From a virus (taxonomy: Duplodnaviria; Heunggongvirae; Uroviricota; Caudoviricetes): DNA of 64,000 nt. Every line of letters starts with the position of its first letter. The stretch's first letter is position 1. The stretch lies in IMG/VR virus record IMGVR_UViG_3300015615_000881; one strand, 5' to 3'. This document shows positions 3,264 to 39,917 of this stretch, piece after piece. The translations under genes and the position numbers were made by a program. The notes under the pieces were generated by a model. The model saw only the letters and a program-made list of their open reading frames with translations. It was not told where the DNA came from and ran no database searches.

Positions 3264-3265
3264 GG

Positions 3266-11359: not shown

Positions 11360-11360
11360 A

Positions 11361-13756: not shown

Positions 13757-13801
13757 TGGTGCGCAGAATCTGTTTATTCTGTGGACTTGTCAACCCGAAT
13801 G

Positions 13802-15768: not shown

Positions 15769-15771
15769 GGG

Positions 15772-16680: not shown

Positions 16681-16683
16681 CTC

Positions 16684-21077: not shown

Positions 21078-21395
21078 TCAAGAAAGGTCCGCAACAATGT
21101 TGATCGTATTGTAGCCTTCCGAGGGCACCGTGAGGACCTTGCCGTCGGCAAAGGTCACCTCCCATTCCTGACGGTGCTCGCCCTCGGTATCAACAATGTC
21201 GGCAACGGCCTGGATGGAAACCTTCCCGTCGGTGGGGGTCGGCGAGATCGTAGCCGGAAGCGACAGGCGCAGGGCGCCCTTCGACATCAGGAATTTTACC
21301 GTGGTGCCGGTGAGATCCAAGGCCGCGCCGGCATAGAGCAGGGTGTCCTCAATGAGTTGTTTGGTGTCGTTCCGTTTGATGGTGATGGTGCTCAT
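21078..21395 (-). CDS. hypothetical small protein
   Basis: The Arg-rich ORF-track N-terminus was discarded. The probable start is MSTITIKRND, directly after the stop of the repeat protein. Confidence 0.3.
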   Translation of the reverse strand: MSTITIKRNDTKQLIEDTLLYAGAALDLTGTTVKFLMSKGALRLSLPATISPTPTDGKVSIQAVADIVDTEGEHRQEWEVTFADGKVLTVPSEGYNTINIVADLS

Positions 21396-22832: not shown

Positions 22833-24014
22833 TCAGAATCCCAGTATGCTTTGCGCCCGTGGCTGCAAGATGGGCGCGTTCACCATGATTTCATCAAGTG
22901 TGATGTCGTTGTGAAACGCCACCACAGGCGGGCCTGTGAACCTGGGTATCGTGCAGAGCCAGGTGATGTCACGGGAGACTGAAGTCAACAACGTCTCCGG
23001 ACTCCAGGTAGCGCCGCCATCGGTCGAACACTTGCAGTAGATGTTGACGAGAGTCAGCCAGTTCTCGCCGCCGCCACTCGCCCCGGCATAGAAAACCCAC
23101 CAGTAACCGGTGCCGGTGTCGAGACCGACGCCGCACAAGGCCTGGTCGTCCGTGCTGTTCAACACCACGTTGGCGCTCGACTCGGTGATCGCCGATTCCG
23201 TGATCGTCCAGAACCTGAGATCGGCGTTCGCGGTATCGATCGCCGACCAGGCGGCCAGCAGGATACGGTTGTTGGTTAGATCCACGGTGGCCGCGTAGTG
23301 GGGCCACGACGTCGCGGCCACCTGCTCCGTCATGGATGTGGCGATGCTCGTCTCCGCCCAGGTGTTCGCCGAATCATCGTAAATCTGCCGGCTGATTTCG
23401 TTGGCGGATATATCCCAGAATATGCCGATGATGTCCTGATTGTCGGCCGCAAAGCCCGGCACCAGAATCATCATGTCCTGCGTGGCAAGCGTCTCATTGA
23501 TCGTGCGCGCCGCGTCCCAGGCGCCGTTGGGAACGTTCGCATTCGGTAGCCGGAAAAACCCGCCCTCAGCGCCGGCGTCGATGCAGGTTCGGCAATAGAC
23601 GTTCCCACCCCGGGCGCGGGTGATCGAAAGAGAACCGCCGGCGGCAGTGCTCGTTCCGGCAAAGATGGTGGTTTGCGTCGAAAGCGCATCCGCGGATGCG
23701 GTGTTCACCGTCCGATAGAGCGTGTCGGATCCGCCGGATTCCGTATAGGCGCAGTGGATCAGATCGCCACTGATCCCGGACCAGCGGTCATACCAGATCG
23801 AGATGGCTACGATGGTGCCGGCAAAGACCACCGTGGGCGCCCCCCAGGTGAGGCCTTTATTCGTCGATTTTCGGAACGCAAGGTCGGATCCGGTATCGAC
23901 GTAGAAGAGATAGAGATCGCCGTTGTTGGCCTGGACAAGATAGGTCGTGCCGCCACCGCTGAATTGAAGGAGGCCGGCCGTCCGGGCGGCAAGGATGTCG
24001 GCACGATTGGGCAC
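22833..24014 (-). CDS. BNR/Asp-box repeat beta-propeller protein (sialidase/glycosidase-like)
   Basis: Asp-box motifs STNKGLTWGAP and STDGGATWSPE (S-x-D-x-G-x-T-W). Length 393 aa. It has no signal peptide. Confidence 0.55.
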   Translation of the reverse strand: MPNRADILAARTAGLLQFSGGGTTYLVQANNGDLYLFYVDTGSDLAFRKSTNKGLTWGAPTVVFAGTIVAISIWYDRWSGISGDLIHCAYTESGGSDTLYRTVNTASADALSTQTTIFAGTSTAAGGSLSITRARGGNVYCRTCIDAGAEGGFFRLPNANVPNGAWDAARTINETLATQDMMILVPGFAADNQDIIGIFWDISANEISRQIYDDSANTWAETSIATSMTEQVAATSWPHYAATVDLTNNRILLAAWSAIDTANADLRFWTITESAITESSANVVLNSTDDQALCGVGLDTGTGYWWVFYAGASGGGENWLTLVNIYCKCSTDGGATWSPETLLTSVSRDITWLCTIPRFTGPPVVAFHNDITLDEIMVNAPILQPRAQSILGF

Positions 24015-24015
24015 G

Positions 24016-24684
24016 TCACACGTTGAGTGTGTAGGTCACGTCGATCTTGTCGCCGTTCCCGACGGTCTTGCTCCCGTTGGAGAAATCACCCGCACTGAAC
24101 AGAATTCCGGTCGTATCGTCCTTGGTCGCGGAGCCGCCGTTGTTGATGAAGCAGCCTGCCACGGTTCCGCCCGAGGTGAACGTGAACTGTTGCACCGGAG
24201 CGGCGGAACTTCCGCCGGAGGCGGCATTGAAGGTGATGGACGGACGGTTGCCGGTATAGACCGGCGCGTTCGCCAGCCCCACCTCACTCCAACCGGAGTG
24301 CGAGGCCTGGGTGTCGCCGACGACGGCACTGCCCGTCCCCTTCAATCCCATGCGCACCGTCTGCGTGTAGGACGAGCCCTTCAGATACTTGTCGAGGAAA
24401 TCGTTCTTGCCGACGGTCGTGACCAGGTTGTCGATGTGGTCGCGCCACTTCTCCTTGCCATCGGGCCCGTAACAAACGGCTTCGAATCGGCCTTTCAGCC
24501 GGAGGGTGTCACCGATCAATCCGCCGCGAGTGACTACCGCGGCCTGGCTGTCCACAACCGAAAGTTTATCGTTCATTTTTGTTCTCCGTATGAATTTGAC
24601 TCTCATTTGAGCGGCTGGTTTTCGACCAGCAGCTCGAGATGGGCGATGTACTCCAGCGCTGCCTTCACCAGATCCGGGGCACAC
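24016..24684 (-). CDS. hypothetical protein (probable start at internal MNDKLSVVD, ~24576)
   Basis: An ORF adjacent to the BNR gene. Its C-terminal half is Gly/Ser/Thr-rich. Confidence 0.35.
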   Translation of the reverse strand: MCPGSGEGSAGVHRPSRAAGRKPAAQMRVKFIRRTKMNDKLSVVDSQAAVVTRGGLIGDTLRLKGRFEAVCYGPDGKEKWRDHIDNLVTTVGKNDFLDKYLKGSSYTQTVRMGLKGTGSAVVGDTQASHSGWSEVGLANAPVYTGNRPSITFNAASGGSSAAPVQQFTFTSGGTVAGCFINNGGSATKDDTTGILFSAGDFSNGSKTVGNGDKIDVTYTLNV

Positions 24685-24848
24685 TCTCGCGCCTTCGCGT
24701 AATCCGGGTGCGCCAGCAACCGACGACCGTAATCCAGGTGAATCTCACCAGCCACGATCGGCGGTCGATCCAACGGCCGGGGCGGAGGCGGAGTGCTGCT
24801 ACACCCCGTCAGGAGGAGGAAGGCGACGAGCGCGATCGATTTTTTCAT
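24603..24848 (-). CDS. small proline-rich outer-membrane lipoprotein, o-spanin (Rz1-like) candidate
   Basis: Lipoprotein signal MKKSIALVAFLLLTGC (lipobox LLTGC) followed by CSSTPPPPRPLDRPP. It is about 81 aa and lies immediately downstream of a TM plus coiled-coil gene. Confidence 0.4.
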   Translation of the reverse strand: MKKSIALVAFLLLTGCSSTPPPPRPLDRPPIVAGEIHLDYGRRLLAHPDYAKARECAPDLVKAALEYIAHLELLVENQPLK

Positions 24849-24980
24849 TGTACCTCTCCACCAGATTCTTTTTGGCCTCCGCCTGCTTCGCCGCATCCGA
24901 CCTGTCCCGACTGGCCCTGCGAAATCGAAGAGCCTCCGTCAGCGACTCAAACAGTTTCGCGATCGCCGCGCCGATGCCAC

Positions 24981-25229
24981 TCACTCGTATTTCTTTCGCG
25001 CCAAGGCCAGCAGGACACTCAAGGCCGCCTCGTTGGCTGCGACCTCCGCGCGTAGTTCCGCGAGATCCGCGCGGACCGCCGCCGCCTCAATCCGACTCGC
25101 GCGCTGGTCCTCGTTGTAGGACGACTGCGTGACGAACAGATGGTAAACCGCCACCAGTGTGGCAGTTGACACGCCACCAATCGCCGCCAGCTTCTTCCTG
25201 CCTGACAATTGTGTCGGCTGGCCGGACAT
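24981..25229 (-). CDS. i-spanin (Rz-like) candidate: N-terminal TM helix plus coiled coil
   Basis: A TM segment (AAIGGVSTATLVAVYHLFV) is followed by a coiled-coil (RADLAELRAEVAANEAALSVLLALARKKYE). The adjacent 61-aa coiled-coil ORF at 24799-24984 in another frame may be its continuation. Confidence 0.35.
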   Translation of the reverse strand: MSGQPTQLSGRKKLAAIGGVSTATLVAVYHLFVTQSSYNEDQRASRIEAAAVRADLAELRAEVAANEAALSVLLALARKKYE

Positions 25230-25232
25230 GGG

Positions 25233-25595
25233 TTATTGATGGCCGGTCAGCTTGATCGAGAACACGTAGTCGAGTCCCCAGGCGAACCAGCGGAAGATGA
25301 TGTTGCCTTCGATCAAGGCGAGAATCTCGTCGTCCCGGGTCGTCGGCGTGGTCTTCACAAACCCATGGAGCCAGGTCATTCCCGGCTTGAATACCGCACG
25401 GAAGCCGACGATGACCCCGAAGATCTGCGCCACGACACCAAACTTTCCCGTGAAAATGCCGATCAACTGGGTGATCCAGGCGGTGTCCACCGGGACGGGC
25501 GGTTGGGCCGGCGATTCCTGCGCAAAGGCGGACACCAGACCGGCGAAGATCGTCACGAGCAACGTGAAGACGACGAGGCGAACGAATGTTTTCAT
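25233..25595 (-). CDS. holin-like small membrane protein (2 TM)
   Basis: From the MKTFVRLVVFTLLVTIFAGLVSAFA start there are two hydrophobic helices in about 120 aa. It is located in the lysis-like cassette. Confidence 0.3.
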   Translation of the reverse strand: MKTFVRLVVFTLLVTIFAGLVSAFAQESPAQPPVPVDTAWITQLIGIFTGKFGVVAQIFGVIVGFRAVFKPGMTWLHGFVKTTPTTRDDEILALIEGNIIFRWFAWGLDYVFSIKLTGHQ

Positions 25596-25630
25596 GGCGT
25601 GGAGGAGAGTTGGAGTTGATTTGCTCAGGC

Positions 25631-26134
25631 TCAGTGGACCGGGGGCAGGCCCGTGTCCACCAACGCGGTATTGACCGACGCGCACATCGTCCTCGCCACG
25701 AAGATGGGCCACTTCTCCGGATCCAACTCCGCGTTGAACCGATCGGCGTAGAACCCTTGATAGAGCGCGATGATCCCGTCCTTGATGGCGAGCACGTCCT
25801 GATCGAGCCCGGATTGCAGCCCGGCCGTGGCGTTGTTGAGCGAGCCGATCAGGAAGTCGGGGGAGAACTTGCCCTCCGCCTCCATCTGGCAGAACACCGA
25901 GCCAACGGCCCGGTAATAGTTCCCGAGTTTGACCCGCGTTCCAGGGCTCTGGTTCGCCAGGACGGCACGCAGGCTGACGGTGACGAGCGTCTGGGCCGCG
26001 GCCGTCACCTTCTCGGTCCGGACCGGGTCAAACACTGGGTGGCCGGTGTTGGGATCGGTGGACCGGCAACCGTTCGAGAGCAGCAGGGTGGCGCCGAGGA
26101 CGATGGATGGAATGATTCGGAATAGTTTTTTCAT
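25631..26134 (-). CDS. lipoprotein of unknown function
   Basis: Lipoprotein signal MKKLFRIIPSIVLGATLLLSNGC (lipobox LSNGC). About 167 aa. Confidence 0.4.
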   Translation of the reverse strand: MKKLFRIIPSIVLGATLLLSNGCRSTDPNTGHPVFDPVRTEKVTAAAQTLVTVSLRAVLANQSPGTRVKLGNYYRAVGSVFCQMEAEGKFSPDFLIGSLNNATAGLQSGLDQDVLAIKDGIIALYQGFYADRFNAELDPEKWPIFVARTMCASVNTALVDTGLPPVH

Positions 26135-26135
26135 G

Positions 26136-26381
26136 TTAGACTCCAATGTTTTTGCTGGCCGGCTCCTTGGATGCACGCTGCGCCTGCCACCGTCTGACTG
26201 CCCGGGCGATCCACGAGAACAGTTTGATGCCCGTCAGGATGGCTGTGAACGTCCACGCCAGGGTTTGCACGAACAGATTCCAATTGGCCAGGGACAGACC
26301 GGTGCTTGAAGCCATCGCCGCCACAACGTATCGGTATCCTGGCATTTCAATGTCCCCCAGCCGGTTGAACCAGTCGCGCAT
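26136..26381 (-). CDS. small 2-TM membrane protein (holin/antiholin-like)
   Basis: The probable start is MRDWFNRL. The ORF-track N-terminus (MTWSTESTESTE) is a translated palindromic DNA element. Confidence 0.3.
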   Translation of the reverse strand: MRDWFNRLGDIEMPGYRYVVAAMASSTGLSLANWNLFVQTLAWTFTAILTGIKLFSWIARAVRRWQAQRASKEPASKNIGV

Positions 26382-26393
26382 TGCCTCACTTTC

Positions 26394-26428
26394 GGTTGAC
26401 TCTGTCGATTCTGTTGACCAAGTCAACG
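26394..26428. promoter_or_regulatory. composite copy of conserved element (GTTGACTCTGTCGATTCTGTTGAC-CAA-GTCAAC)
   Basis: It lies at the 3' boundary of the secreted-protein operon and contains a GTTGAC-CAA-GTCAAC palindrome. Confidence 0.45.
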
Positions 26429-26432
26429 TTTT

Positions 26433-28571
26433 TTATGATCCCCGGATGACATACCGCACCCGGACCGTGGTTTGACCGCTCGAGGTCGCCGTGCTCTTCT
26501 TGATCCAGATGTTGGTGAAGGCGGTGGCGCTTTCACTGGTCTTGTTGCCGCTGTCCACCAGGAGCTTTCCGGTGCCGGTCGCCACGGCGGCGTTGACGAA
26601 CTTCGTCTGGGACGCCGTGGTGCCCACGTCGATGGTCCCGGCGTTGAACGCCACCTCCCGGTCGAATTCCACGTCCAGGATCCCGCAGTTGGGCGGCAGT
26701 TCGAGTAGCTTCGTGGTATTGGCGGAACTGGAGATTTCGGAGTGCAGGTAGGTCTTCTGCACCACCATTTCATTGGCCATCCGGGGTCTCCAGTGGTACA
26801 CCCCGCCACCCATCTCGCCGGCGGCCGGCGCACTCGACAGTTTGTTCGCGGAACGGTCCGGGATGAATTTACCGATGCCCACCTGGAGGTCTGGCTCCAG
26901 CATGGCGCCAATCTCCTGCAGGATGACGTTGTCGAGGAAGATGCTTCCGCTGGCGCTCGGAGCGACCCGGCGGATGCCAAAGTTCGCCGACGCCGCGACA
27001 AACTCATGGATGAACTGGGCGTAGGACGTCGAGAGAGTGTTGGTCCAGGCGGTGTCCCCGGTGGCGCCGGAGGATCCCGCATAGCAGACGGTCGCCCCCC
27101 GCTTCGCGTAGTACGTGACCCGGTAGCGCTTCCCGGGCGTCATGGCGCCCGTGGCATTGATGCTGACGTTGCTGTCCGAGGCGTCCACGTCCAGCCGGCA
27201 GGACCGGGTTCCGGCGAAGGGCGCACCGGTCTCGTTGTTGACGGTGGACGTGCCGGCCGTCGTTTCCGACCAGCTCGCGAATACGTCCGCACCGCCGCCG
27301 CCCAGCGTCTCGAAATCCCCGTTCAAGGTGGCGGGGTTGTAGTGAACGATCGCGCTCTGGGCCGCCCATTGATCGGCGTACGAGACCCCAGCTTCGCGCA
27401 ACCGGGTGACGTCGGACGGCGACAACCCGCGGTTGAACACCGCCGCGGCCGTGATCAGGTCGCTGAATTGAAGGCTGTTGTCACTGAGGGTAAACGTGGT
27501 GTTGGTGATCGAGTCGTAGAAATTCGGAGGCGCGCCGCCGGTCGTCGTTTCAGAAAAGGCCGGCACCACCCCGTTGAGATAGATCGTCAGAGTCCCGAGT
27601 GACCTGGTGATCACCAAATCCGTGAACTTGCCCGACAATCCCCCGGGCGCGCCGCCAACCACACCGCTGACACCGGAGATGGAGCGCTTTCGGGTTGAGG
27701 CTGCCGAGTGCTCGGTGTGGATGAATTCCAACGCGCCCGAAGCCAGCGGAAATCTCGCCTCCAGGCACTTCCCAAGTCCTCCGCTGACCGAGAAGAGTTC
27801 GGTCGCCGCCGCCGCGACCGAGATGGTTTCCGGACACTTGAACCTGACCCAGATCGTGTAGTCGTTGGTGTCCAGAGTGGGTAGCGTGAAAGGAAGCGAC
27901 GCGCCGGACACCGTCCAATCGAAGTACAAGCCGCCGGCGGTGATCTTCGCATTGTTGACATTGTCGATGTAGTTGGATGCCCAGAACGTGGAGGCCAGGC
28001 GGTCCGTTGGCGAGCCGGAAACCAGAACGCCATCGACAAAGACAAGCGCATTGGTTCCGACGTTGAGGTCGCTCTGGATTGACCATGAGTTGGTGCCCGA
28101 TTTTCCCTGGATGAACTTGGCACCGCTGGTTCCGTCAGCCTTGACGATGCCGGTAGTTGAGACGCCGTTGGACGCGAAGTTGGGAAGATCGAGGGTCTTG
28201 TTCGAAAGCAATTCCTTCGCGCCGACCCGGGACACGGTGTTCGTGTCATCCTGGGCGGCGGGATTGCCCAGGAAGTTGAAGTTGAACAACTGATAGTTCC
28301 CGAGAGATGAATTGTAGGTCCGGATCTGAAACGAGTTGGTCCCGGTGAACTGACCCGATAACGTGCGGCCGGTGATCAGGGCTGGCAAAATGACATCCGC
28401 AAGCCGATTCGTGCCGGCGTTCTGGTTGAGTCCCTGAATGGTGGTGCCCGCGTTGTTGTTCTGGCCAAAGAAGCCGGGCAGCACTTTGTCGTAGGTGCTA
28501 TTGCCGATCACAGTCCGCTGGGCGTGCAGCGGAAGGACGAGGACCAGTAGAGCGATCGCGAATCTCATCAT
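26433..28571 (-). CDS. secreted large protein with conserved N-terminal QNNNAG...NAGTN module
   Basis: Signal peptide MMRFAIALLVLVLPLHAQ. The N-terminus GQNNNAGTTIQGLNQNAGTNRLADVILP is paralogous to that of 31346-33349. The rest is Gly/Thr/Ser-rich and beta-rich. Confidence 0.45.
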   Translation of the reverse strand: MMRFAIALLVLVLPLHAQRTVIGNSTYDKVLPGFFGQNNNAGTTIQGLNQNAGTNRLADVILPALITGRTLSGQFTGTNSFQIRTYNSSLGNYQLFNFNFLGNPAAQDDTNTVSRVGAKELLSNKTLDLPNFASNGVSTTGIVKADGTSGAKFIQGKSGTNSWSIQSDLNVGTNALVFVDGVLVSGSPTDRLASTFWASNYIDNVNNAKITAGGLYFDWTVSGASLPFTLPTLDTNDYTIWVRFKCPETISVAAAATELFSVSGGLGKCLEARFPLASGALEFIHTEHSAASTRKRSISGVSGVVGGAPGGLSGKFTDLVITRSLGTLTIYLNGVVPAFSETTTGGAPPNFYDSITNTTFTLSDNSLQFSDLITAAAVFNRGLSPSDVTRLREAGVSYADQWAAQSAIVHYNPATLNGDFETLGGGGADVFASWSETTAGTSTVNNETGAPFAGTRSCRLDVDASDSNVSINATGAMTPGKRYRVTYYAKRGATVCYAGSSGATGDTAWTNTLSTSYAQFIHEFVAASANFGIRRVAPSASGSIFLDNVILQEIGAMLEPDLQVGIGKFIPDRSANKLSSAPAAGEMGGGVYHWRPRMANEMVVQKTYLHSEISSSANTTKLLELPPNCGILDVEFDREVAFNAGTIDVGTTASQTKFVNAAVATGTGKLLVDSGNKTSESATAFTNIWIKKSTATSSGQTTVRVRYVIRGS

Positions 28572-28933
28572 CTCAAGAACACGCAGATCCCAGTGCCGTA
28601 CTTGCCGGAGGATGGCGGCGGGTTGTCGAACTTCTCCTTGGACACCGAAAGCCACTTGAAGCTCCGATGCTGAGCCCACGGCAAGTCATCCTTGATCCTG
28701 AACACCGGGGCGGGCGCGTTCGTCACCCCGAGTTGTTCGGAAGAGCAGACGTAATCCCATTTGATGTTGTCATCCGTCACATACAACTCGAAGTAGGTGG
28801 GCACGCTGGTGGAATCCACCTGCTTGAAGTTGAACGAGGTCACCGTGGCGGACTGGGGCGGCATCGGCACCGGAGGAGCCGACACCAACCCGACCGTGGC
28901 CAGGACGATTGCTGAAGCGATTAGTTGTCTCAT
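28568..28933 (-). CDS. small secreted protein
   Basis: Signal peptide MRQLIASAIVLATVGLVSAPP. 121 aa. ATGA coupling at both ends. Confidence 0.4.
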   Translation of the reverse strand: MRQLIASAIVLATVGLVSAPPVPMPPQSATVTSFNFKQVDSTSVPTYFELYVTDDNIKWDYVCSSEQLGVTNAPAPVFRIKDDLPWAQHRSFKWLSVSKEKFDNPPPSSGKYGTGICVFLR

Positions 28934-30624
28934 TGTTTGATGCGCTGGCGCCTTTCGGTCGGCGCGGCGTCGTTGTCGTTGATGTTTACCTGGGCGGAGG
29001 TTGGGCTTGCCGGCGTATAGGATCCGGCGGCGATGTTGAGTATGATCGTTTCAGTTCCCTCCACCGCCGCATCGTCCACGGCGGTGATGGGAATCGTGAC
29101 GCTGGACTGGCCATTGGGAATCACTACCGAGGTGCCGATGGTTCCGTAGTCGCCTGTCTCCGTCGCGCTGCTGCTGCCGTCGATGGTGAAGTTGACGGTC
29201 AAGCCTCCGGACGTGGAACCGGTTCGCGTCACCTGAAAGCCGCCGGCGGACCCACCCTCGGTCGCATTGCCGAGGGAAATGATGCTGACAGTCGGGGTCG
29301 TTCCACCCCCGGTAAATTCAAACCTCCCGACATCTCTCACCCCCTCAGCAATGGCGTTGCCGTCACCGTCCAGAATGGCAAGCTGAGGAGCCGTACCGGC
29401 GTTTCTCAGTGCGGACGTTGAGGTCAACCGGAAATTGTTCCAGGCAACAAAATCCGCGTTGTACTGATCTCCAAAAAGGGAGTTGGGCGTCGTGAATGAA
29501 GAACCGATACGGTTTTCCAAATTGGCCCTCAAGTTGTCTGACGAGACGCAATTCGACGCCACGCAAGCAGGTACTCCGGAGCCGATAAAAAAACCGTTTG
29601 CCCAGTTGCTGATGGCGGCGCAATTGACCCACCTGGCGCCCGTCGAATTGGCGCTGTCGATGGCGAAACCGCCGCCGACACCAGTCGCTTGGTTGCCATT
29701 CCGCACCGCCGTGCAATTCTCCCAAAGGGTATCAATGGCTCCATAGGCGGCATAGAATCCGATAACGACGTTTGTCGCCTCGCAGTTGATGAACTTGTTG
29801 CCGATGCCCTGATACGCCCCGAATCCGCGAGGCATCAGAGCCCCTGTGCTGAACCCGCGGCAGTTGATCAGGATGTTCGAATTGACCGAACCTGAACCCC
29901 CCGTGGCGTTCACATGAAAAGCGTGGGGGGTGCCACCACCGGACTGATCAGCGCCAACGCAGTTGGTATAGTAGCCAAGGCTGGACCCGATATACCACGC
30001 GTGCTGATCGTTATCTCCCAGATAATTCAACCAGCCATTATTGGTCGCGATGCAGTCGTAGAAAGAGACTCCATTCATGTTCTGGAGCACCCCGTGACGA
30101 CCGGCGGAATCTGTGAACTTGCAGCCTTTAAAAACGTTGGACGAGCTGGCAGTCCCAACATTATAGCAAGTCAATACCGGGGAATCTGAAATACTGTTGG
30201 TCAGAGACCACCAGATGTTCTCGAACCAGACAAAGGACTTGTCCACTGGATCGAAGTTGTAGTTGCCGAAAAAGAGCGCGGGAGAATTCCACGTGTTGTC
30301 CGGAGCCACCTTAACGTTGTGACCGGGATAGGCCATGATCCGCGTGTAGTTGCCACCGGTCCCGTTCTTGATCTTCATCTTGGAGACGTTTCCACCGGTC
30401 GATGAGTCGGTGCCCATCCCCTCGTTGTACACACCCTCCAGAATCTGTAGAGTGTCGTTGGCCTGCATGTTGTTGATGCCGTACACGATGTTCCGCCACG
30501 GAGCGTTGGTGGAAGTGCCGGCGTTGGCGTTGTTGCCGTAGAGGGCGACGTAGTTCGTCTGCGCGGCGCTAAGCCACAGCGGCGTCCACAGAATCAATTG
30601 GCTGATGAGCAGGAGTGTCTTCAT
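28930..30624 (-). CDS. secreted right-handed beta-helix (pectate-lyase-like) protein with C-terminal Calx-beta domain
   Basis: Signal peptide MKTLLLISQLILWTPLWLSAAQT. Repeated NC...N beta-helix rungs (INCRGF, INCEATN, ENCTAVRN, VNCAAISN, SNCVSSDN). C-terminal Calx-beta signature DGSSSATETGDYGTIGTSVVIPNGQSSVTIPITAVDDAAVEGTETIILNI. Confidence 0.55.
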   Translation of the reverse strand: MKTLLLISQLILWTPLWLSAAQTNYVALYGNNANAGTSTNAPWRNIVYGINNMQANDTLQILEGVYNEGMGTDSSTGGNVSKMKIKNGTGGNYTRIMAYPGHNVKVAPDNTWNSPALFFGNYNFDPVDKSFVWFENIWWSLTNSISDSPVLTCYNVGTASSSNVFKGCKFTDSAGRHGVLQNMNGVSFYDCIATNNGWLNYLGDNDQHAWYIGSSLGYYTNCVGADQSGGGTPHAFHVNATGGSGSVNSNILINCRGFSTGALMPRGFGAYQGIGNKFINCEATNVVIGFYAAYGAIDTLWENCTAVRNGNQATGVGGGFAIDSANSTGARWVNCAAISNWANGFFIGSGVPACVASNCVSSDNLRANLENRIGSSFTTPNSLFGDQYNADFVAWNNFRLTSTSALRNAGTAPQLAILDGDGNAIAEGVRDVGRFEFTGGGTTPTVSIISLGNATEGGSAGGFQVTRTGSTSGGLTVNFTIDGSSSATETGDYGTIGTSVVIPNGQSSVTIPITAVDDAAVEGTETIILNIAAGSYTPASPTSAQVNINDNDAAPTERRQRIKQ

Positions 30625-31349
30625 GGTTTGATGGCGTAGGCGAGGATGGTCCACGCGGTTGATCCTCCGAGAGTGTACGAGTGGGTGACTGACCCCGTCC
30701 CACCTTCAGTGGAACAGATGGCCGTGGTGAACGCGGATTGACCTCCGGTCCAACGCTGGGTCTGGTCGGCACCGACGGCCAGTGAAACGTTGCCGTAGTT
30801 CATCGAAGCGCCGATGAGCATCTCCCCCGTCGAAAGGGTTAGTGAGGTTGACGGAGTGGTGCTGGTGCCGGAGGCGGTGATCCCGTTTCCTTCCGCCTGA
30901 GTTTGCGCCGCGCCGTTGAAAGTGACAACGCCGATACACCACTCAGAAACGGCCGCGGAATAGGTGACCACGGCGTCATACGTGCCCGCCGCGAGGCTGC
31001 CGATCCCCACTCCCCACAACGACAGGTTCACCGAAGCGCTATCGACGATATTCGTGAGCTTCGAACAGGCCACTCCATTGAAGGTGACAGACGTAATGGT
31101 ACGGTTTTCCCAGTTGGCGAACCCAACCGCCGCGTAACCTGACGAGTGAGATCCCCCCGTGGTGATTGTGTTGGTTATCGTGGTCTGGGAGCCTTGAGCT
31201 TGAGTCGCTGTCGAGGCGTAGGCAAACGACACGGAGCCGCCCCCACCGCCTCCGCCGGCGGAGATCGGCTTGTTCCACGCGGGATCCTGGAGCGTGTTCG
31301 GCTGGGCGAACGCCGCCAGGCAGACCAGCAATGTGAGCCCGCGAATCAT
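30621..31349 (-). CDS. secreted Gly/Thr/Ser-rich protein
   Basis: Signal peptide MIRGLTLLVCLAAFAQP. It has a GGGGGGG run and is 242 aa. Confidence 0.4.
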   Translation of the reverse strand: MIRGLTLLVCLAAFAQPNTLQDPAWNKPISAGGGGGGGSVSFAYASTATQAQGSQTTITNTITTGGSHSSGYAAVGFANWENRTITSVTFNGVACSKLTNIVDSASVNLSLWGVGIGSLAAGTYDAVVTYSAAVSEWCIGVVTFNGAAQTQAEGNGITASGTSTTPSTSLTLSTGEMLIGASMNYGNVSLAVGADQTQRWTGGQSAFTTAICSTEGGTGSVTHSYTLGGSTAWTILAYAIKP

Positions 31350-33349
31350 TTGAATCGTCGCAGCGCGAATGAGGTGTTGGTCTCGCTGGGGCCATGACTG
31401 ATCAGGCTGATCATGGCCGCGGTTCCGTTGGTGAGGACGTAGGTGTAATTCTCGTCGTCCTTCGGCGGATTCATGGAGGAATGAAGCTGAATGTTCCGGT
31501 TCGCGCCGGTTGCCCTGACATACAGTTGGTAGCTCCGGCTGAAGGCGTATTCCGTAGCTGGCCGGTTCGTGGTGAACAGGAAGAGGTCGTTCGAGAGCAC
31601 CGCCACCGCACCCTCCCGGGTAAAGTCGGCGATGTAGTTCGTGACACTGCTCGATGCGGTCAACAGGCCGGTTTCAAACTCATTGGCCATCAGGTGCGGT
31701 TGGTCGTAATCCCCAAACATCCGGCCGGCGGCATACCAAAAGCGGAGGACGGTCGTTTTCAGCGGAGGAAGCTGGGGACTGATCTCACCCACCCAGTAGG
31801 ATTCCGCGGAGGGCCAGGTGACGTTGATCCCGTTGGTCGTCGCGGACGCGGTGTTGGTGATGTAAACGAAGACGGGCGAGGTCTGAAGGTTTGTATCCGC
31901 CGGGAGTCCCGCGAAGGAGATGTTGACCGTGTTCGTCGCGGTGATCCGGTAGGCGTTTGTCTTGGTGGGATCGATGACGATGGTGTTCGCGGTGAGGTGC
32001 ACCAACGGCACCGTGTAGGTGTTGAGAATCTTCAGCCCGCCGAACGCGTGCGGGCTGTTGTTGGTCCCACCCTCGGAGGTCGAGAAATCCCCCTTGAGAA
32101 ACCCGCCGTCAATCTTCAGACCGTTGCCCACCGCCGCCGCCCCGACCAGCCCGCCGCCGCCCGGGTTCAGGAGAAGGCCGGATGGGGTGTTGCTGAGGAC
32201 AATGCCCGGGCCGACCCTCATCGCATTGCCGTCGAGGTTCAGCCAGTTGGTCGATGAGTTGTTGGTGCCGCTGCCGGGCCCGACCATGAACGCCGCGGTG
32301 GGGTCGCCGAGGTCGATCCTTAACGTGGCGCTGTCGATCGACAGACCATAGTGCAGCGCCGCGCTGACCGGGTAGAGCGTGATTTTTCGGCCGGTCGTGG
32401 AGGAAAATATCTCGATCGCCCCGTTGTTGCTGTTGGTGGTGATCGTCCAGGCCGTTCCCGCCGTGTAGCCATTCGTCGCGTGGTAGCTGGTGGCGCGAAC
32501 AATATCGAGGCCAGTCGTTCCGGTGAGTGTCGGGCTGCCCTGGCGGACGGCGAGGCCGCTCCCCGTGAAGTCCGGCATGAGGCCGAAGAATTCTGCTGCG
32601 GAATCGATCTCGGTGGACCGGATGATGTTGAGGCCGCCCAGCGCCGTCTCGAGCTCCGCCTCCGTATCGACGTCGATGGTGTTGTTGCTGCCGTCACTCC
32701 CCAGCAGCCCGGTTCCGTAGGTCGCCGTGTCCGCCCCGGTACCGCCGCGAGCGCGCTCGATCTGTCCCGAAGGGAAGAAGGCGGTGGCGTTGTCTCCGGC
32801 GTTGGCGGTGCCGGACGAGGCCGCAAAGTTGATCGTGATGTCGTTCGGCACCTGGCCGTCGGTTAGCACGCCCTGCAGATCAGGTAGATCCATGACGCCT
32901 TCCAGCGCCGACTCCAGGGAACCGATCGTGATGCTGCGTTTGGCGTTGGAGTCGGGGGCCGATTCGATGATCAGAAGGTCCGAGGCAATGGGAGTCGCCT
33001 TGCTGGCGATGCCGGCAATTTCTCCGGATTGATTGTCGTGGATCGCCGCGGGGTCATCGCCACCACCCCCACCGCCACCGGGTGCCGTGACGTAATACCA
33101 CCGGTGCGGCGCGGTGCCGTTCGTGGCAACCGTGAGTCCGCTGCCCCACACAATCGGAATGACGTTGATGTCAAATTGATTGGTCCCGGCGTTCTCCCCG
33201 ATTCCAACGATGGCCAGGCCCGCGTTGTTGTTCTGGGTCCAGAAGTTGGTGAGGAACTGGTCCTCCGGCTTCTTACCGAGCAGCGTGATCTGCGCGGAGG
33301 CCTCCAGGCAGGCCGCGAAAATGCACAGCAAGGCGATGATTCGCTTCAT
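31346..33349 (-). CDS. secreted large protein, paralog of 26433-28571 (shared QNNNAG...NAGTN N-terminal module)
   Basis: Signal peptide MKRIIALLCIFAACLEASAQ followed by TQNNNAGLAIVGIGENAGTNQFDINVIP. Length 667 aa. The operon is preceded by the conserved palindromic element plus a TTGACA box. Confidence 0.45.
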   Translation of the reverse strand: MKRIIALLCIFAACLEASAQITLLGKKPEDQFLTNFWTQNNNAGLAIVGIGENAGTNQFDINVIPIVWGSGLTVATNGTAPHRWYYVTAPGGGGGGGDDPAAIHDNQSGEIAGIASKATPIASDLLIIESAPDSNAKRSITIGSLESALEGVMDLPDLQGVLTDGQVPNDITINFAASSGTANAGDNATAFFPSGQIERARGGTGADTATYGTGLLGSDGSNNTIDVDTEAELETALGGLNIIRSTEIDSAAEFFGLMPDFTGSGLAVRQGSPTLTGTTGLDIVRATSYHATNGYTAGTAWTITTNSNNGAIEIFSSTTGRKITLYPVSAALHYGLSIDSATLRIDLGDPTAAFMVGPGSGTNNSSTNWLNLDGNAMRVGPGIVLSNTPSGLLLNPGGGGLVGAAAVGNGLKIDGGFLKGDFSTSEGGTNNSPHAFGGLKILNTYTVPLVHLTANTIVIDPTKTNAYRITATNTVNISFAGLPADTNLQTSPVFVYITNTASATTNGINVTWPSAESYWVGEISPQLPPLKTTVLRFWYAAGRMFGDYDQPHLMANEFETGLLTASSSVTNYIADFTREGAVAVLSNDLFLFTTNRPATEYAFSRSYQLYVRATGANRNIQLHSSMNPPKDDENYTYVLTNGTAAMISLISHGPSETNTSFALRRFK

Positions 33350-33404
33350 TTGAAATGCCTCCTCGGCATCAGTAACTCCGCCATGATGCAGAATCCCTTT
33401 GCTC

Positions 33405-33425
33405 TGTCAATGGATTCTGTTGACT
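33405..33425. promoter_or_regulatory. conserved element copy (GAGTCAACAGAATCCATTGACA on the coding strand) with -35-like TTGACA
   Basis: It lies 56-76 nt upstream of the ATG at 33349. An inverted repeat CAGAATCC/GGATTCTG (33388-33395 and 33411-33418) flanks it. Confidence 0.5.
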
Positions 33426-33428
33426 CCG

Positions 33429-35075
33429 CTACGGAATGATCTCAATTCCGTTGATGGCGACGTGATACCCCGACCCGGCGCCAAGCAGGGGTGTCAGTCG
33501 CACTTTGATGATTCCGTTGCTGTCGGCGCGCAGGACAAAACTCTGGATGTTCGCCTTGAACTTCCCGCCGGCGGCCGCGATGACGTCGTAATTGGACACG
33601 CTTTGTGTCGTCTGGCCGATCACCTCGATGTTGAACCGCTGGTCGCCGGTGTTGTTCCACAGGATCTCGGCGAAGTGGAGCCGCACCGTGTAGTCCAGGG
33701 CGCGGGCCAGACCGGGAATCGTGTAGGTCAGCGGGTAGTTGTCGTAGAACTTGCCCCGGTGCGATTGATAGACCGCCTGGGGCGCCGGACTCACCACACC
33801 GCTCACGTCGATCGCATTGGGAACCGCGCCGGTTCCCCCGACGTCATAGTAGGCGTCGGCCGCGAAGGGTGCGGCGGCGGACCCGCCGCAGTTAAGCTTG
33901 ACCGTCGGGATGCTGCTCAAGGCGGGCTGCACATTCATCTCGAGATAGACGAAGCTCGCGAAATTCTCCACCCCGCTGCCGGCCGGGACCCCGCTGGTGC
34001 ATATCCACCGTGCGTACTCACCCACCTCGATGAACGTGCTGCCGAAGGTGACAGCGTTCTGCACCTCCACACCGTGGGCGCCGGCCGGGATGTCGATGGT
34101 GTCCCCCGTCAGGACGCCGTTCACCTGGAGGGCCAGCCGTTGCGGCAGAATCCCGGGATTGGCGGTCAGGTTCGTCTTGGTGACCAGCATCCGCTGCTCC
34201 CAGCGCTTGCGGCCACCGATGTAGTCGCCCAGGGCGACGAAGTCATGCCGCGTGTACAGCACCGGCTGATTCAACTGCACGAGGCTGACGTACTGGTCGA
34301 GCTTGACCTTGTCTGCGGCCGACAGGAGTCCGTCCGTGGACGTGGTTGCCACCGGGTGCGTGTGCTCGTAAGCCGCGGCGCCGCTGGTGCCGATCTTCGT
34401 GTAGATTCCCGCACTCGTATTGAGAATCCTGGCGCCCGGCGGGTTCGGATCCATCTTCACGTCACCGGAGATCTTCTGATCCCCGTCCACGATGGTGGGT
34501 GTCAACGTGGTGGACGCCTGGACCGTGACCTTGTTGTGCAAACCAACGTGCCCGTGATTGCCGCGGGCCACCTGGTTGACTCCGGATCCGAAATCGACCT
34601 GCAACCCGTCGCCCTCAATGATCAGGCCACTGTCGCCAGAAAGTTTGACCTCGCCGGCGAGGACCTGCCCGCCCGGCCCAGCCAGCGTGAACTCAATCGA
34701 CGTGCTGGTGCCAAGCGTTACCGGATCATGCAGCCCGCTGTGGGTATGGTTCTCGCTGGCGACGCCGGAGGTGGACAGGCCGTCACTATCCGAGGTGAGT
34801 CCCCCACCTGGCTTCAATGCAACCGCGGCGGACAACTCGCCGCCAGGGTCGTCATAGTTCCAGCGAACGGTGTGACTGTCCTGGATCAGGGCGGCGACCT
34901 GATCGGCCGTGGCCTCCGCAAAATCCGTGATCTGGCTCGACGTGTGCGTGTGGCCGGCGTCAACCCCAGATGAGATGGCCGCCTGCATCTGATCCAGACG
35001 CACCAGATGATTCGGAAGAGTCGCGGGATTCTCCGACGTGAACTGGGCTCCGGTGACGTTTCCGAGTTTGGCCAT
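33429..35075 (-). CDS. tail fibre protein with N-terminal HxH collar repeats and C-terminal malectin-like carbohydrate-binding domain
   Basis: Repeats GHTHTSSQITDF, ENHTHSGLHDPV, GNHGHVGLHNKV and YEHTHPVATTST match the phage tail fibre repeat. There is a central EVNGVLTG-type beta-domain. The C-terminus YTVRLHFAEILWNNTGDQRFNIEVIGQ matches the malectin signature. Confidence 0.6.
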   Translation of the reverse strand: MAKLGNVTGAQFTSENPATLPNHLVRLDQMQAAISSGVDAGHTHTSSQITDFAEATADQVAALIQDSHTVRWNYDDPGGELSAAVALKPGGGLTSDSDGLSTSGVASENHTHSGLHDPVTLGTSTSIEFTLAGPGGQVLAGEVKLSGDSGLIIEGDGLQVDFGSGVNQVARGNHGHVGLHNKVTVQASTTLTPTIVDGDQKISGDVKMDPNPPGARILNTSAGIYTKIGTSGAAAYEHTHPVATTSTDGLLSAADKVKLDQYVSLVQLNQPVLYTRHDFVALGDYIGGRKRWEQRMLVTKTNLTANPGILPQRLALQVNGVLTGDTIDIPAGAHGVEVQNAVTFGSTFIEVGEYARWICTSGVPAGSGVENFASFVYLEMNVQPALSSIPTVKLNCGGSAAAPFAADAYYDVGGTGAVPNAIDVSGVVSPAPQAVYQSHRGKFYDNYPLTYTIPGLARALDYTVRLHFAEILWNNTGDQRFNIEVIGQTTQSVSNYDVIAAAGGKFKANIQSFVLRADSNGIIKVRLTPLLGAGSGYHVAINGIEIIP

Positions 35076-35078
35076 GGT

Positions 35079-36404
35079 CTATCCGGTGGCGGGATCGGGG
35101 GTGCCGGAGGGGCGCCCGTTGGGTTTCCTGCCAGGACGATCGCCGTGGGCCGGGTCGAAGATGGGCAGGTGCTGATGCAGAGGATCCTTGTGCTCCGCCT
35201 CCTTATTCGCCTTTTCTTCTTCTGGGTCGAGCCCGCCTTCCTGCAGGAAACTCGACTGGCTGCCGGCACCGCTGGTCAGCGCCATCTTCATGTACTCGAG
35301 CGCAACCCGGGGATCGTTGAAGCAACGGTTGCTCCACTGGAGTTCCAACTCGGTGTCGTAGGCTTCCTTGATCACCGTTTCGACGTGCCGCTCGACCAGC
35401 TCGCGCTCCGCCAAGGCCTCCTGCTTGAGGAGGTTCATCAGGTAGGGCGCCGGCGTCTTCGCCAGCAGCATGTAGCCGACGGCGCCAGCCCACACCTGGA
35501 GCCGGACCAGCACGTCGTCCCACTTCTTTCCGTCGAACACCTTCGGGTCAATCGTGACGTACTTGATCACATGATCAAAGTTGGTGGTGATCTCCATGAA
35601 ACCCACCTGCCCCTTGAACTTCTTCTCGATCGCGTCCCCGCGCTCCTTCTTCCAGAAGTGCGCGGGTGTGCCGGCCTTCGATCCCTGCTTGATCTCATGC
35701 CCGAGCAGGTGCTGGCGGATGGGTGAGCGAGCCAGAAATCCGCACAGGGAGCCCTGAACGTCCATGCCCTGAGCCTGCGAAAGAATACGAAAGGCCGAAT
35801 ACATTGACGGCTGACCCAGCCCATCACCCACCCGGCAGGTCTTGAGAACCTTGAATCGGCGGCCCTTTGTTGGATCCAGAACCACGGTCCCCGTGAATTC
35901 CTTCTTCAGTTCATCGGGAAGATCCGAAGCCTTCCACTTGGGGTAAAACTTCAGTTTCTCGAAACCCAGCGCATCCGTGTAATCGCAGCATTCCAGCGGC
36001 AGTGTGAGTGGGTGCGCGTTAAGAATGCCCGGTGCATTCTCCAGCCAGAGGGTGATGACGTTCGAATAAATGAGCCGGTCCTGCCACACTGACCGGACGT
36101 AGTCGTAGAACCATTCGGCATTCTCCTCCAGAAAGGCTTTGCTTTTGTCGGTCTTCCTGACCCGAAAGCCTGAGTTGAAAAACGCCTGCTTGAGGCCAAC
36201 GATGGTTCGCACCCACCAACTATCATCGTACCAATCAGAACAGATCTTGAACGACTCCTTGAGATCGTCCGGCGCCTCGGCCCTTTGCAGCGAGCCGAGC
36301 TTTACCGAACGATGATCGTGAATGTCAACGGTGCAGTAGGATCGCTCTTCGCGCGCGCGCTTTGACCTTGGCATGTGCGGACCTCCAAAGGCGCACCAGA
36401 ACAC
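35079..36404 (-). CDS. hypothetical 441-aa protein coupled to the tail fibre gene
   Basis: An ORF preceded by the conserved element and the CTCTATAGAG palindrome. No motif. It could be a fibre-associated or portal-like protein. Confidence 0.3.
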   Translation of the reverse strand: MFWCAFGGPHMPRSKRAREERSYCTVDIHDHRSVKLGSLQRAEAPDDLKESFKICSDWYDDSWWVRTIVGLKQAFFNSGFRVRKTDKSKAFLEENAEWFYDYVRSVWQDRLIYSNVITLWLENAPGILNAHPLTLPLECCDYTDALGFEKLKFYPKWKASDLPDELKKEFTGTVVLDPTKGRRFKVLKTCRVGDGLGQPSMYSAFRILSQAQGMDVQGSLCGFLARSPIRQHLLGHEIKQGSKAGTPAHFWKKERGDAIEKKFKGQVGFMEITTNFDHVIKYVTIDPKVFDGKKWDDVLVRLQVWAGAVGYMLLAKTPAPYLMNLLKQEALAERELVERHVETVIKEAYDTELELQWSNRCFNDPRVALEYMKMALTSGAGSQSSFLQEGGLDPEEEKANKEAEHKDPLHQHLPIFDPAHGDRPGRKPNGRPSGTPDPATG

Positions 36405-36407
36405 AAA

Positions 36408-36432
36408 GACTCTATAGAGTCAACAGAATTGC
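36408..36432. promoter_or_regulatory. conserved element copy in opposite orientation plus GACTCTATAGAGTC palindrome
   Basis: It lies between genes 36482-37294 and 35079-36404. The sequence is AGACTCTATAGAGTCAACAGAATTGC. Confidence 0.45.
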
Positions 36433-36481
36433 ATTACGGGAAGCCCGCCTGGTGAACCGGGCGGGCGGCGGGCGGGGCAGC

Positions 36482-37294
36482 TTACTTCACCAGTTCTTGG
36501 CGAGCTGCGTCAACGGGCAGCTTCAATCGGGCAAGCGCCTCGTCCGCCAATTCCAGGCAATGCCGGAGCGAGTCCCGGCAGTGAGTGAGGCGACCGGCGA
36601 CTTGCTTGTCGGATCCAGATAGGACCGCGCGCACGGCCTCGCCGACATTGCCGGCGTTCCACAAATTGAATTGCACGCCGCTTGCGATCTCAAAGTTACG
36701 GATGGCCTCCCGGAGCGCGGCCGCGTCGAGCTCGATCCGTTCGGCGTTGTGTTTGGCTTGCATGGTCGCCAATTCTTGCCCCTGCTTGTAGCCCTCCTCT
36801 TTCCCTTCATTGCGCGCGCGCCTCAACCTGGCCGCCGGCGTCGCCTGCTCGACGATGCGCCGGACGAGCGCCGCGACAAAGCCTCGATCGACCGGCTCGG
36901 GTTTCATCAGGACCGGGACTTTCGCGCATTGAAGCCTGCCCGCGGTGTCGAGCTCCAGGAGGCCCCAATTGATCGGGAGCTCGTCGAGCTTCACAATTCC
37001 CGGGGAGCCGGTCGCCACAATCCAATTGTCGCAAAACTTTGCGATCGGATCCGCCTTGCCTGGATCCTGGAGCTCGCGGATCCAGTCGCCGCGGGAAACC
37101 TTGACCTCGATGCCGACGATCTCCAGGCCACGCGACGGCCAGAGGCCGACGAGCACAACGTCGGCGTGACGCCGGCAGCGGAATCCGGTCGAGTTGCCGA
37201 CCTCCTCGACGAGGGCGTACGCCTCGGCCGGATACTTCCGACGGAGCGCGGCGACGACGTCGGCGGCCGTTGCCTTTGGCTTGGCAGGTTTCAT
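36482..37294 (-). CDS. PD-(D/E)xK-like nuclease-fold protein with C-terminal coiled coil
   Basis: HADVVLVGL...LEIVGIEVKVSRGDW matches the D...(E/D)xK restriction-endonuclease-fold motif. The C-terminal segment is helical. Confidence 0.35.
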   Translation of the reverse strand: MKPAKPKATAADVVAALRRKYPAEAYALVEEVGNSTGFRCRRHADVVLVGLWPSRGLEIVGIEVKVSRGDWIRELQDPGKADPIAKFCDNWIVATGSPGIVKLDELPINWGLLELDTAGRLQCAKVPVLMKPEPVDRGFVAALVRRIVEQATPAARLRRARNEGKEEGYKQGQELATMQAKHNAERIELDAAALREAIRNFEIASGVQFNLWNAGNVGEAVRAVLSGSDKQVAGRLTHCRDSLRHCLELADEALARLKLPVDAARQELVK

Positions 37295-39663: not shown

Positions 39664-39917
39664 TTCCTTGTTCTACTGATTCGGTGGACTACATCAACAA
39701 ACGTCTTCCGATCAATCTCGATCGCACCCAACGCCACCGCCTTCTTTCGCTTGGTTTTGCAGATGTCGAAGTGCGGATACTTCGCGTTCTGGAACCACCG
39801 ACGACTCACGCCAATGGCATCCGCCATCGCGAACAATTCCTCTGTGGTGTCCACGATCATGTGACACATGAGCATGCCGCGGAACGGCCAGATCGGTGCG
39901 TCAACGTAGCAAGCCAT
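39660..39917 (-). CDS. DUF4031-family protein
   Basis: MACYVDAPIWPFRGMLMCHMIVDTTEELFAMADAIGVSRRWFQNAKYPHFDI matches the DUF4031 pattern (xVYVDd...W.HL.AD...EL..fA..lG..r.Wf..HYDi). Confidence 0.45.
   Translation of the reverse strand: MACYVDAPIWPFRGMLMCHMIVDTTEELFAMADAIGVSRRWFQNAKYPHFDICKTKRKKAVALGAIEIDRKTFVDVVHRISRTRK
39676..39692. promoter_or_regulatory. conserved element copy (GTAGTCCACCGAATCAG, 16/16 identical to the copy at 17585-17600)
   Basis: It lies 17 nt upstream of the ATG at 39663 and overlaps the 3' end of the DUF4031 gene. Confidence 0.45.

Follow-up and report, generated by a model that had tools for sequence, protein, structure and literature searches.

Tailed phages with several receptor-binding proteins (RBPs), among them CBA120, G7C and K1-5, carry one conserved N-terminal anchor on several of their tailspikes or fibers, and to our knowledge no such spike anchor lies behind a Sec leader. 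Phage-encoded envelope proteins also occur in late regions, as with Lom and Bor of lambda and Llp of T5, a lipoprotein that masks the phage's own receptor and protects the progeny. Phages of Porphyromonas gingivalis encode signal-peptide proteins that obey the Q-rule (PMC10367356), under which, in Bacteroidetes, Gln directly follows the signal peptidase I site (PMC5837995). In Pantoea stewartii, WceF is an exported glycanase with a tailspike fold that acts on the cell's own exopolysaccharide (PMC7949094), and the MAT fibers of Bdellovibrio bacteriovorus consist of a signal peptide, a conserved N-terminal domain of ~130 aa, a trimeric fiber and a variable tip (PMC10769870). The absence of a signal peptide has been cited as support for the phage origin of such proteins, as distinct from bacterial surface proteins (PMC6199706). 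Here we analyze an operon of five genes, A to E in order of transcription, in a 64,000-nt stretch of a Caudoviricetes genome (IMG/VR record IMGVR_UViG_3300015615_000881; hereafter, the window, in which 66 genes were counted). Whole operons of receptor-binding-type proteins with leaders, which we found in this prophage and in five phage-like loci, break the expectation that the absence of a signal peptide marks such proteins as phage-derived.

Judged by layout, and not by homology of the N-domain, the closest analog in architecture appears to be the MAT family. The MAT-type combination of signal peptide, shared N-domain and variable tips occurs in proteins A and E and in a family of 26 sequence clusters, where the signal peptide stands directly before a conserved N-domain (~165 aa, compared with ~130 aa in MAT fibers). 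The likeness extends to a shaft resembling phage tail fibers, to variable adhesive tips with lectin folds or beta-sandwiches and to the presence of paralogs that share the N-domain. The settings differ, since MAT fibers are products of chromosomal predator genes and localize to the predator's own surface or to prey, whereas A to E form a prophage operon beside lysis-like genes. Multi-RBP phages resemble the operon in having an N-terminal module common to proteins with different distal domains, in splits into adaptor and tip, and in a depolymerase-like beta-helix alongside; their spikes, however, have no signal peptides and are assembled in the cytoplasm, whereas here every component, the small ones included, has a Sec leader. 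Lom, Bor, Llp and the P. gingivalis phage proteins (PMC10367356) are likewise products of signal-peptide phage genes among or near tail genes, and the P. gingivalis proteins expose Gln after cleavage, as is predicted for four of the five proteins here, but all of these are single, small proteins without RBP architecture, in contrast to a coupled five-gene operon of large fiber-, lectin- and glycanase-like proteins. Proteins A to E combine known kinds (phage receptor-binding modules, exported fiber adhesins and phage-encoded envelope proteins) and are not yet categorically new; no described function explains a leader-bearing fiber-like operon, and similar runs are present in unrelated uncultured phages.

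Five coupled genes with a signal peptide on each product

Genes A to E, like all genes counted in the window, lie on the minus strand (Table 1). A sequence-only reading of the window had described them as consecutive and ATGA-coupled, and this structure stands: all four junctions are ATGA start/stop overlaps, and the independent gene calls of the Joint Genome Institute (JGI) for the source contig are identical. The sole strong ribosome-binding site of the operon is the Shine-Dalgarno sequence of gene A, so that B to E are probably translated by coupling. Shine-Dalgarno use is low in the window generally, with a 4-mer or better before 18 of 57 genes and a strong sequence before ~7.

The same reading had assigned Sec signal peptides to all five proteins, and all five N-termini indeed fit the n/h/c pattern (MKRIIALLCIFAACLEASA/Q, MIRGLTLLVCLAAFA/Q, MKTLLLISQLILWTPLWLSAA/Q, MRQLIASAIVLATVGLVSA/P and MMRFAIALLVLVLPLHA/Q, the slash marking the predicted cleavage site). 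Signal peptides were called by a heuristic of our own plus inspection, which looked within the first ~15–35 residues for a basic n-region, a hydrophobic h-region of 7–15 residues and small residues at positions −3 and −1. By these means the leaders have an uncharged hydrophobic core behind the basic n-region, with neither a twin-arginine motif nor a lipobox. Envelope-directed proteins account for about a quarter of the window (16 of 66 genes: 7 with leaders, 4 lipoproteins and 5 with N-terminal membrane segments). A run of five leader proteins among 66 genes has a permutation p of 3.6e-4, and a run of 10 exported or membrane proteins, made up of A to E and the five small genes downstream, was reached in 0 of 200,000 shuffles. 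Gln occupies position +1 (A/Q) in A, B, C and E and in one of the small downstream proteins, that with a signal peptide and a transmembrane segment; D has A/P. These sites recall the Bacteroidetes Q-rule and are only a lead about the host, the survey behind that rule not having included Verrucomicrobia and Planctomycetes (PMC5837995). Read by the usual rules of topology, AxA-type sites and a positive charge ahead of the hydrophobic core mean that the bulk of each protein leaves the cytoplasm. Predicted export is the most economical reading of the leaders, and we consider it very likely that A to E are exported from the cytoplasm.

In A, the signal peptide (residues 1–19, ...EASA/Q) is followed by the first ~45 aa of a conserved N-terminal module (hereafter, the N-module; residues 20–66), a poly-Gly stretch (91–97), a fiber-repeat region (~98–260) with the motifs AIHDN..GEI.., ANAGD.ATAFF..GQIERARGGTGADT.. 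and IDVDTEAELETALGG, and an orphan C-terminal region (261–667). E has a signal peptide (1–18, ...PLHA/Q), the full N-module (~19–190, nt 28002–28517), a LamG-like domain (231–388), a CBM4_9-like domain (415–494) and a conserved C-terminal domain that extends to residue 712. The two small proteins are less telling: behind its signal peptide (...AAFA/Q), B has poly-Gly at 32–38 and then a ~200-aa domain without a Pfam, PDB or NCBIfam match, and D (...GLVSA/PP) continues with a ~100-aa domain to which no fold was assigned. A ~200-aa gene after the fiber gene of another locus (L003) was considered as a counterpart of B and rejected, no similarity being found.

Protein C (...LSAA/Q) had been described as a pectate-lyase-like beta-helix with a Calx-beta domain, and it is the second half of this description that is directly supported. 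The Calx-beta domain (residues 462–552, nt 28969–29241) matches Pfam PF03160 with 31.8 bits against a cut-off of 27 and is the sole confident part of an AlphaFold model built from nine sequences, with a predicted local distance difference test score (pLDDT) of 88–96 over residues 441–550, compared with a pLDDT of 49.5 for the model and values below 50 over most of residues 12–440. Calx-beta domains bind calcium. The right-handed beta-helix at ~22–440 is putative and indicated indirectly, by the Pfam family PF22842 (Pel9A-like_beta_helix) in a C homolog (P0030; 49% identity, 96% coverage) and by an xNCx motif that recurs in C every 23–33 residues; C itself has no Pfam beta-helix match at E ≤ 1. 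A model for such a protein is WceF, an enzyme whose right-handed beta-helix is tailspike-like and whose export signal is N-terminal, with the differences that WceF is encoded by a bacterial gene in an exopolysaccharide biosynthesis cluster and exported folded by means of a Tat leader, whereas C is phage-encoded, carries a Sec-type leader without twin arginine and has a Calx-beta domain.

The domains of A to E point to polysaccharide binding (LamG, CBM4_9-like) and possibly to cleavage (beta-helix). PDB sequence searches with A, B, C and E were empty or gave spurious matches, NCBIfam and PADLOC returned nothing meaningful for A to E and the five small downstream proteins, no S74 chaperone-protease domain was detected, and IMG/VR scans with A, E and the N-module alignment found no relatives.

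The N-module family and leader-bearing runs in other loci

That two of the proteins share a conserved module after the signal peptide was confirmed for A and E (42% identity over 65 aa, E = 5e-10). Residues 19–204 of E, used as a query, retrieved 26 clusters among 1.84 billion representatives, and in the 23 members long enough to show the N-terminus the module starts at residue ~21–58, right after the leader. The first mature residue is Gln in 22 of 22 proteins (20 retrieved members plus A and E), with the consensus (I/V)x(V/I/L)LG(K/R)...D(K/R).L..FW.QN.NA...GLN following it. What comes after the module varies: some members have no further part (~200 aa, ending ...DGVLTAAQ), and others continue as long fibers with an LPTAS...G.LS..DW..FNSKQ repeat, as pectate-lyase-type beta-helices or as LamG plus CBM. 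The N-module has no Pfam, NCBIfam or PDB match (a PDB profile search was empty), and its AlphaFold model from 12 sequences (pLDDT 52) was too poor for a fold search. On alignment evidence it defines an uncharacterized protein family, and its arrangement is that of a docking domain carrying interchangeable tips.

Two loci (L007 and L010) have E split into two genes, a stand-alone N-module protein and then a LamG/CBM protein. The LamG/CBM half has a leader of its own in both loci; that of the N-module half is seen in L010 and is cut by the contig end in L007. Another locus (L006) keeps the order B-C-D, at identities of 33%, 49% and 57%, and lacks E. Its B homolog is partial, running off the contig end, and its C and D homologs have leaders, the 57% identity of the D homolog (1956–2318, next to the C homolog) including the signal peptide. 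Behind these genes, inspection shows small envelope proteins that seem to match those of the window, namely a lipoprotein that has the common motif CxMxxEGKFSP, a protein with a signal peptide (...VAFA/Q) and a transmembrane segment, a transmembrane plus coiled-coil protein and a second lipoprotein; an integrase comes next. Because they are conserved in the C and D homologs, on the separately encoded halves of E and before every member of the N-module family, the leaders look functional and under selection; the separate leaders on the split halves are the strongest computational evidence for a functional leader.

Twenty metagenomic relatives of A are similar to it in the central region only, with the motifs AIHDN..GEI...IEDSA, ANAGDSATAFF..GQIERARGGTGADTS and IDVDTEAELETALGG, and by inspection ~14 of them have a signal-peptide-like leader. 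In one (P0010), fiber repeats match annotated tail fibers of cultured cyanophages, over a stretch other than the A-like one.

Leaders on fiber-like proteins were found in five other uncultured phage-like loci, in four of the five on two to seven neighboring genes. L003 encodes a terminase and a portal and protease of Mu type, with three large leader-bearing proteins among the downstream genes, and L013 encodes a GP7-type capsid protein. L012 is a 38-kb genome whose fiber protein was found on 20 contigs; there, a short tape measure and four small proteins are followed by leader-bearing proteins of 479 and 1114 aa, a 212-aa protein, a leader-bearing protein of 1155 aa and further small proteins, the leader-bearing run extending over 8565–17438. 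At 67–10913, L014 encodes, each with a leader, a fiber, a beta-helix, an SGNH esterase, a second fiber, a LamG protein and a protein of 1010 aa, and then small proteins, one of which (108 aa) is also leader-bearing. L002 has two consecutive leader-bearing proteins before a superinfection-immunity gene; upstream of them lie genes lacking Pfam matches, and these, together with the downstream genes (AraC-type regulators, RmuC, transposases and a guanylate cyclase), hint that a prophage ends here. To judge from these loci, leader-bearing runs of receptor-binding type are recurrent and no quirk of the window, and those of the unrelated contigs L012 and L014 are longer or larger still.

What the predicted exported proteins may do

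We propose, with a probability of roughly 0.45, that A to E constitute an exported module that is derived from RBPs and acts on envelope glycans. The sequence-only reading had seen a secreted or surface-displayed adhesin or depolymerase cassette; the leaders and the LamG, CBM4_9-like, Calx-beta, beta-helix-like and fiber-repeat content agree with it, and a cassette bounded by the palindromic element is not supported, as detailed below. The module would have been assembled from RBP parts, namely fiber repeats, a glycanase-like beta-helix body with Calx-beta, LamG/CBM lectins and the docking module of A and E. One transcript, starting at a promoter-type element that also serves other operons of the prophage, would yield the five proteins in fixed proportion through one strong ribosome-binding site and then ATGA coupling. 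The unfolded proteins would cross the inner membrane, lose the leader, and fold and associate in the cell envelope, where A and E would probably dock through their common N-module. In this location A to E would most likely bind and cut the host's envelope polysaccharide, such that receptors are masked or destroyed and release is helped, and we infer that they would be freed when the adjacent holin/spanin-like genes lyse the cell. The logic may be that of a receptor-destroying enzyme or of T5 Llp, with the phage's own adhesin parts as the building material in this case. If the proposal is right, phages place copies of their receptor-binding toolkit outside the cytoplasm to act on the host envelope, be it by masking or destroying receptors, in release or in remodeling the surface.

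A to E would not be incorporated into the virion in the cytoplasm under this proposal, because the virion appears to have signal-less fibers of its own. The gene just upstream of A is likely to encode one of them, with matches to Pfam Malectin (E = 1.6e-11) and to FtbO, the side fiber of the Listeria tailocin monocin (PDB 9j1l, E = 1.9e-8). A ~100-aa domain of this protein occurs again, 19 kb away, in the products of 14575–15768 (34% identity, E = 7e-10) and 13802–14656 (31%), which suggests a leaderless family of virion fiber or baseplate proteins. A to E have no leaderless paralog within the window.

Several observations weigh against the proposal. The list of parts in A to E is exactly that of tail fibers and spikes. 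In L012, the tape measure and four small proteins precede the three large leader proteins, which occupy the usual slot for fibers and take up about one-fifth of the genome, a costly share for accessory genes; L014 has at least six consecutive leader-bearing fiber, beta-helix, SGNH and LamG proteins and, in the part seen, no signal-less fiber. Defence and exclusion families gave no match to A to E. Searches of A to E for an outer-membrane secretion signal (the C-terminal domain of type IX secretion, autotransporter, lipobox; Pfam and NCBIfam) were also negative, which leaves surface display unexplained. The last point bears on location, since the spanin-like pair downstream implies a two-membrane host, and there Sec carries proteins no farther than the periplasm unless a further system is at work.

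The main alternative, which we hold to be possible but rather doubtful, is that A to E are true tail fibers or spikes with their helpers, which are exported, fold in the periplasm in the presence of oxidizing conditions and Ca2+, and are joined to finished tails via the N-module at lysis. Domain content and modular layout are those of RBPs, with variable tips on a conserved N-terminal adaptor and with variants in which adaptor and tip are split, the repeats of P0010 match those of annotated cyanophage fibers, and in L012 the leader proteins take the usual fiber position behind the tape measure and the small genes of the tail tip. Leader proteins lie just before lysis-like genes in the window and in L006, L010, L012 and L014; the small accessory proteins B and D have leaders too, as expected if the whole assembly line were periplasmic; and the control element of the operon is common to other prophage operons. 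Generalized, this would mean Sec-dependent transport of the entire receptor-binding apparatus, from fibers and spikes to lectin tips and helper proteins, in a group of uncultured tailed phages, with the fibers folding in the periplasm and joining the virion only at lysis, a reading that we likewise regard as possible but rather doubtful. We know of no tailed phage in which a step of virion assembly takes place outside the cytoplasm, and our literature searches found none whose tail fibers are Sec-dependent. Attachment after lysis would be subject to dilution and inefficient, canonical signal-less fibers of this prophage adjoin the operon, and A and E have no match in 50,697 cultured phage records. 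Were this alternative correct, maturation of tail fibers would be possible beyond the cytoplasm. Whichever holds, the annotation of such genes and the prediction of host-range determinants from metagenomes would have to change, and the defined N-module family and its loci are now at hand for testing the question.

The control element of the operon bears on whether it could instead be a lysogenic-conversion module. The sequence-only reading had noted that copies of a palindromic element, GTCAACAGAATCCATTGAC, flank the operon, and they do, upstream of A and, with mismatches, downstream of E (Table 1). A pattern search for GTCAACAGAATCNNTTGAC-like sites within three mismatches, in which two perfect palindromes were counted on both strands, gave 9 matches compared with 0.12 expected, 8 of them at six gene-strand places and 1 within gene C on the opposite strand; a repeat search added a seventh copy at ~39671. 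The seven gene-strand copies precede an epimerase gene, a glycosyltransferase gene, 16684–17529, the holin-like gene, gene A, 35079–36374 and 38851–39663. Short intergenic gaps hold six of the seven, four of which follow a stop codon immediately, and the one at 1182 falls within the final codons of the gene before it. The copy before A overlaps the only sigma-70-like promoter match in 24000–37000. From these positions, we read the element as operon-start punctuation, that is, a candidate promoter with a regulator site. With copies before at least seven transcription units, structural ones included, it does not mark the bounds of a cassette, and mobility or recent acquisition has left no sign, as the G+C content of A to E, overall and at third codon positions (GC and GC3), is within the range of the prophage. 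The palindromes were rejected as marks of a mobile cassette on the same two grounds.

In a lysogenic-conversion module, A to E would be MAT-like surface fibers plus a glycanase, expressed in the lysogen, that serve host adhesion, polysaccharide capture or biofilm remodeling. We consider this improbable. It would suit a prophage that lies beside the host genes purA-uppS-cdsA-dxr-rseP, an operon that has its own promoter-like site and an architecture that is the same as in Bdellovibrio MAT surface fibers (PMC10769870), and the epimerase and glycosyltransferases elsewhere in the prophage suggest an investment in the host surface. However, the control element also stands before other operons, including one from the presumed structural region, and this speaks against a lysogenic-conversion moron with regulation of its own and gives no indication of separate expression in the lysogen. 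The base composition is native, no terminator was found on the coding strand at the operon, no outer-membrane export or anchoring signal was found in A to E, and similar runs occur on phage-like contigs that have no integrase in the parts seen (L012 and L014).

Finally, we give very little credence to the view that the hydrophobic N-termini are start-codon artifacts or uncleaved membrane tethers of cytoplasmic fibers, which gains from the leader calls being based on a heuristic plus inspection but runs against starts fixed by ATGA coupling, one strong ribosome-binding site and independent gene calls, against positive charge N-terminal of the hydrophobic core, which predicts the protein bulk outside, against AxA-type sites with invariant Gln at +1 across 22 family members, and against the leader on each separately encoded half of split E.

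Genome setting and neighboring genes

Table 1 Coordinates of the operon, its control sites and the adjoining genes in the window
Feature	Position (nt)	Strand	Size or sequence	Basis or remark
Signal-less fiber protein	33429–35075	minus		four HxH motifs, C-terminal malectin domain; outside the operon
Palindromic element	33406–33424	minus	GTCAACAGAATCCATTGAC	0 mismatches; upstream of gene A
Sigma-70-like promoter match	33410 to 33383	minus	TTGACA, 16 nt, CATCAT	overlaps the element before A
Shine-Dalgarno sequence of gene A	33358–33364	minus	GAGGAGG	sole strong ribosome-binding site of the operon
Gene A	31346–33349	minus	667 aa	open reading frame list and JGI gene calls of the source contig
Gene B	30621–31349	minus	242 aa	start overlaps the stop of A (ATGA); JGI gene calls agree
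Gene C	28930–30624	minus	564 aa	open reading frame list and JGI gene calls
Gene D	28568–28933	minus	121 aa	open reading frame list and JGI gene calls
Gene E	26433–28571	minus	712 aa	open reading frame list and JGI gene calls
Palindromic element, second copy	26400–26418	minus		3 mismatches; between gene E and the holin-like gene
Holin-like protein, two transmembrane segments	26136–26381	minus		topology
Lipoprotein	25631–26134	minus		topology
Signal-peptide (...SAFA/Q) plus transmembrane protein	25233–25595	minus		topology
Transmembrane plus coiled-coil protein, i-spanin-like	24981–25229	minus		topology
Pro-rich lipoprotein, o-spanin-like	24603–24848	minus		topology

The host genes purA, uppS, cdsA, dxr and rseP start ~30 nt past the high end of the window on the 164-kb source contig. 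Since host genes continue directly beyond the window, the stretch is a prophage of an uncultured bacterium (JGI sample 3300003278). At the junction between prophage and host, an open reading frame of 219 aa on the opposite strand (62975–63634) could encode a repressor or recombinase. Look-ups did not place the host: the prophage epimerase gave no more than a 52% match in a metagenome-assembled genome of Candidatus Adlerbacteria; the closest named relative of the Calx-beta domain is a Verrucomicrobiia fragment, the sole name to come from cluster look-ups of phage and host proteins; and a genome scan with the A alignment, made in search of the host, gave no match.

Phage functions recognizable in the window are a tape measure (7213–10617), a primase/helicase, a DNA methyltransferase and an exonuclease. 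Neither Pfam nor PHROGs recognized a terminase, portal or capsid in the window, and on that account the phage is, as far as its proteins can be compared, very divergent; the product of 35079–36374 is portal-like by eye only. The operon lies between the signal-less fiber gene and the holin/spanin-like genes, and its placement inside the structural region by the sequence-only reading holds loosely, the tape measure, the sole robustly identified structural gene, being 16 kb off.

The roles of the five small proteins downstream of E (24603–26381) were assigned from topology only, and none has a family match. They are followed by two genes without leaders, one for a protein with BNR/sialidase-like repeats (22833–24014; weak Pfam BNR_2 match) and one for a phrog_8123 protein (24016–24576), whose products may be further glycan-binding proteins of the virion. 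Farther along, a 60-nt (20-aa) unit occurs at least five times at 21903–22272 in gene 21392–22510 (372 aa, no family match), four times in tandem and once more after a 120-nt step, the copies being 60–84% identical to the reference copy. A tRNA-Met (CAT) gene (13309–13383) lies between the tape measure and the presumed head/tail genes, adjoined by a gene for a 175-aa protein with a signal peptide (13229–13756).

Near the low end of the window, an NAD-dependent epimerase gene (159–1178) and a GT1-type glycosyltransferase gene (3439–4692), each preceded by the palindromic element, belong to a glycan-modification block that continues beyond the window (L008, 11013–15993) with two GT9 heptosyltransferase-like genes, a methyltransferase and a cytidylyltransferase; the block may be a lipopolysaccharide- or surface-modifying module of the prophage. 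In the replication region, 39901–40320 and 55312–55896 share an 80-nt repeat (74% identity) that corresponds to a common segment of 36 aa (61% identity), carried by a small protein with a hydrophobic N-terminus and by a lipoprotein, and further exported proteins of this region are encoded at 54559–55308, 53889–54299, 44847–45194 and 44454–44843.

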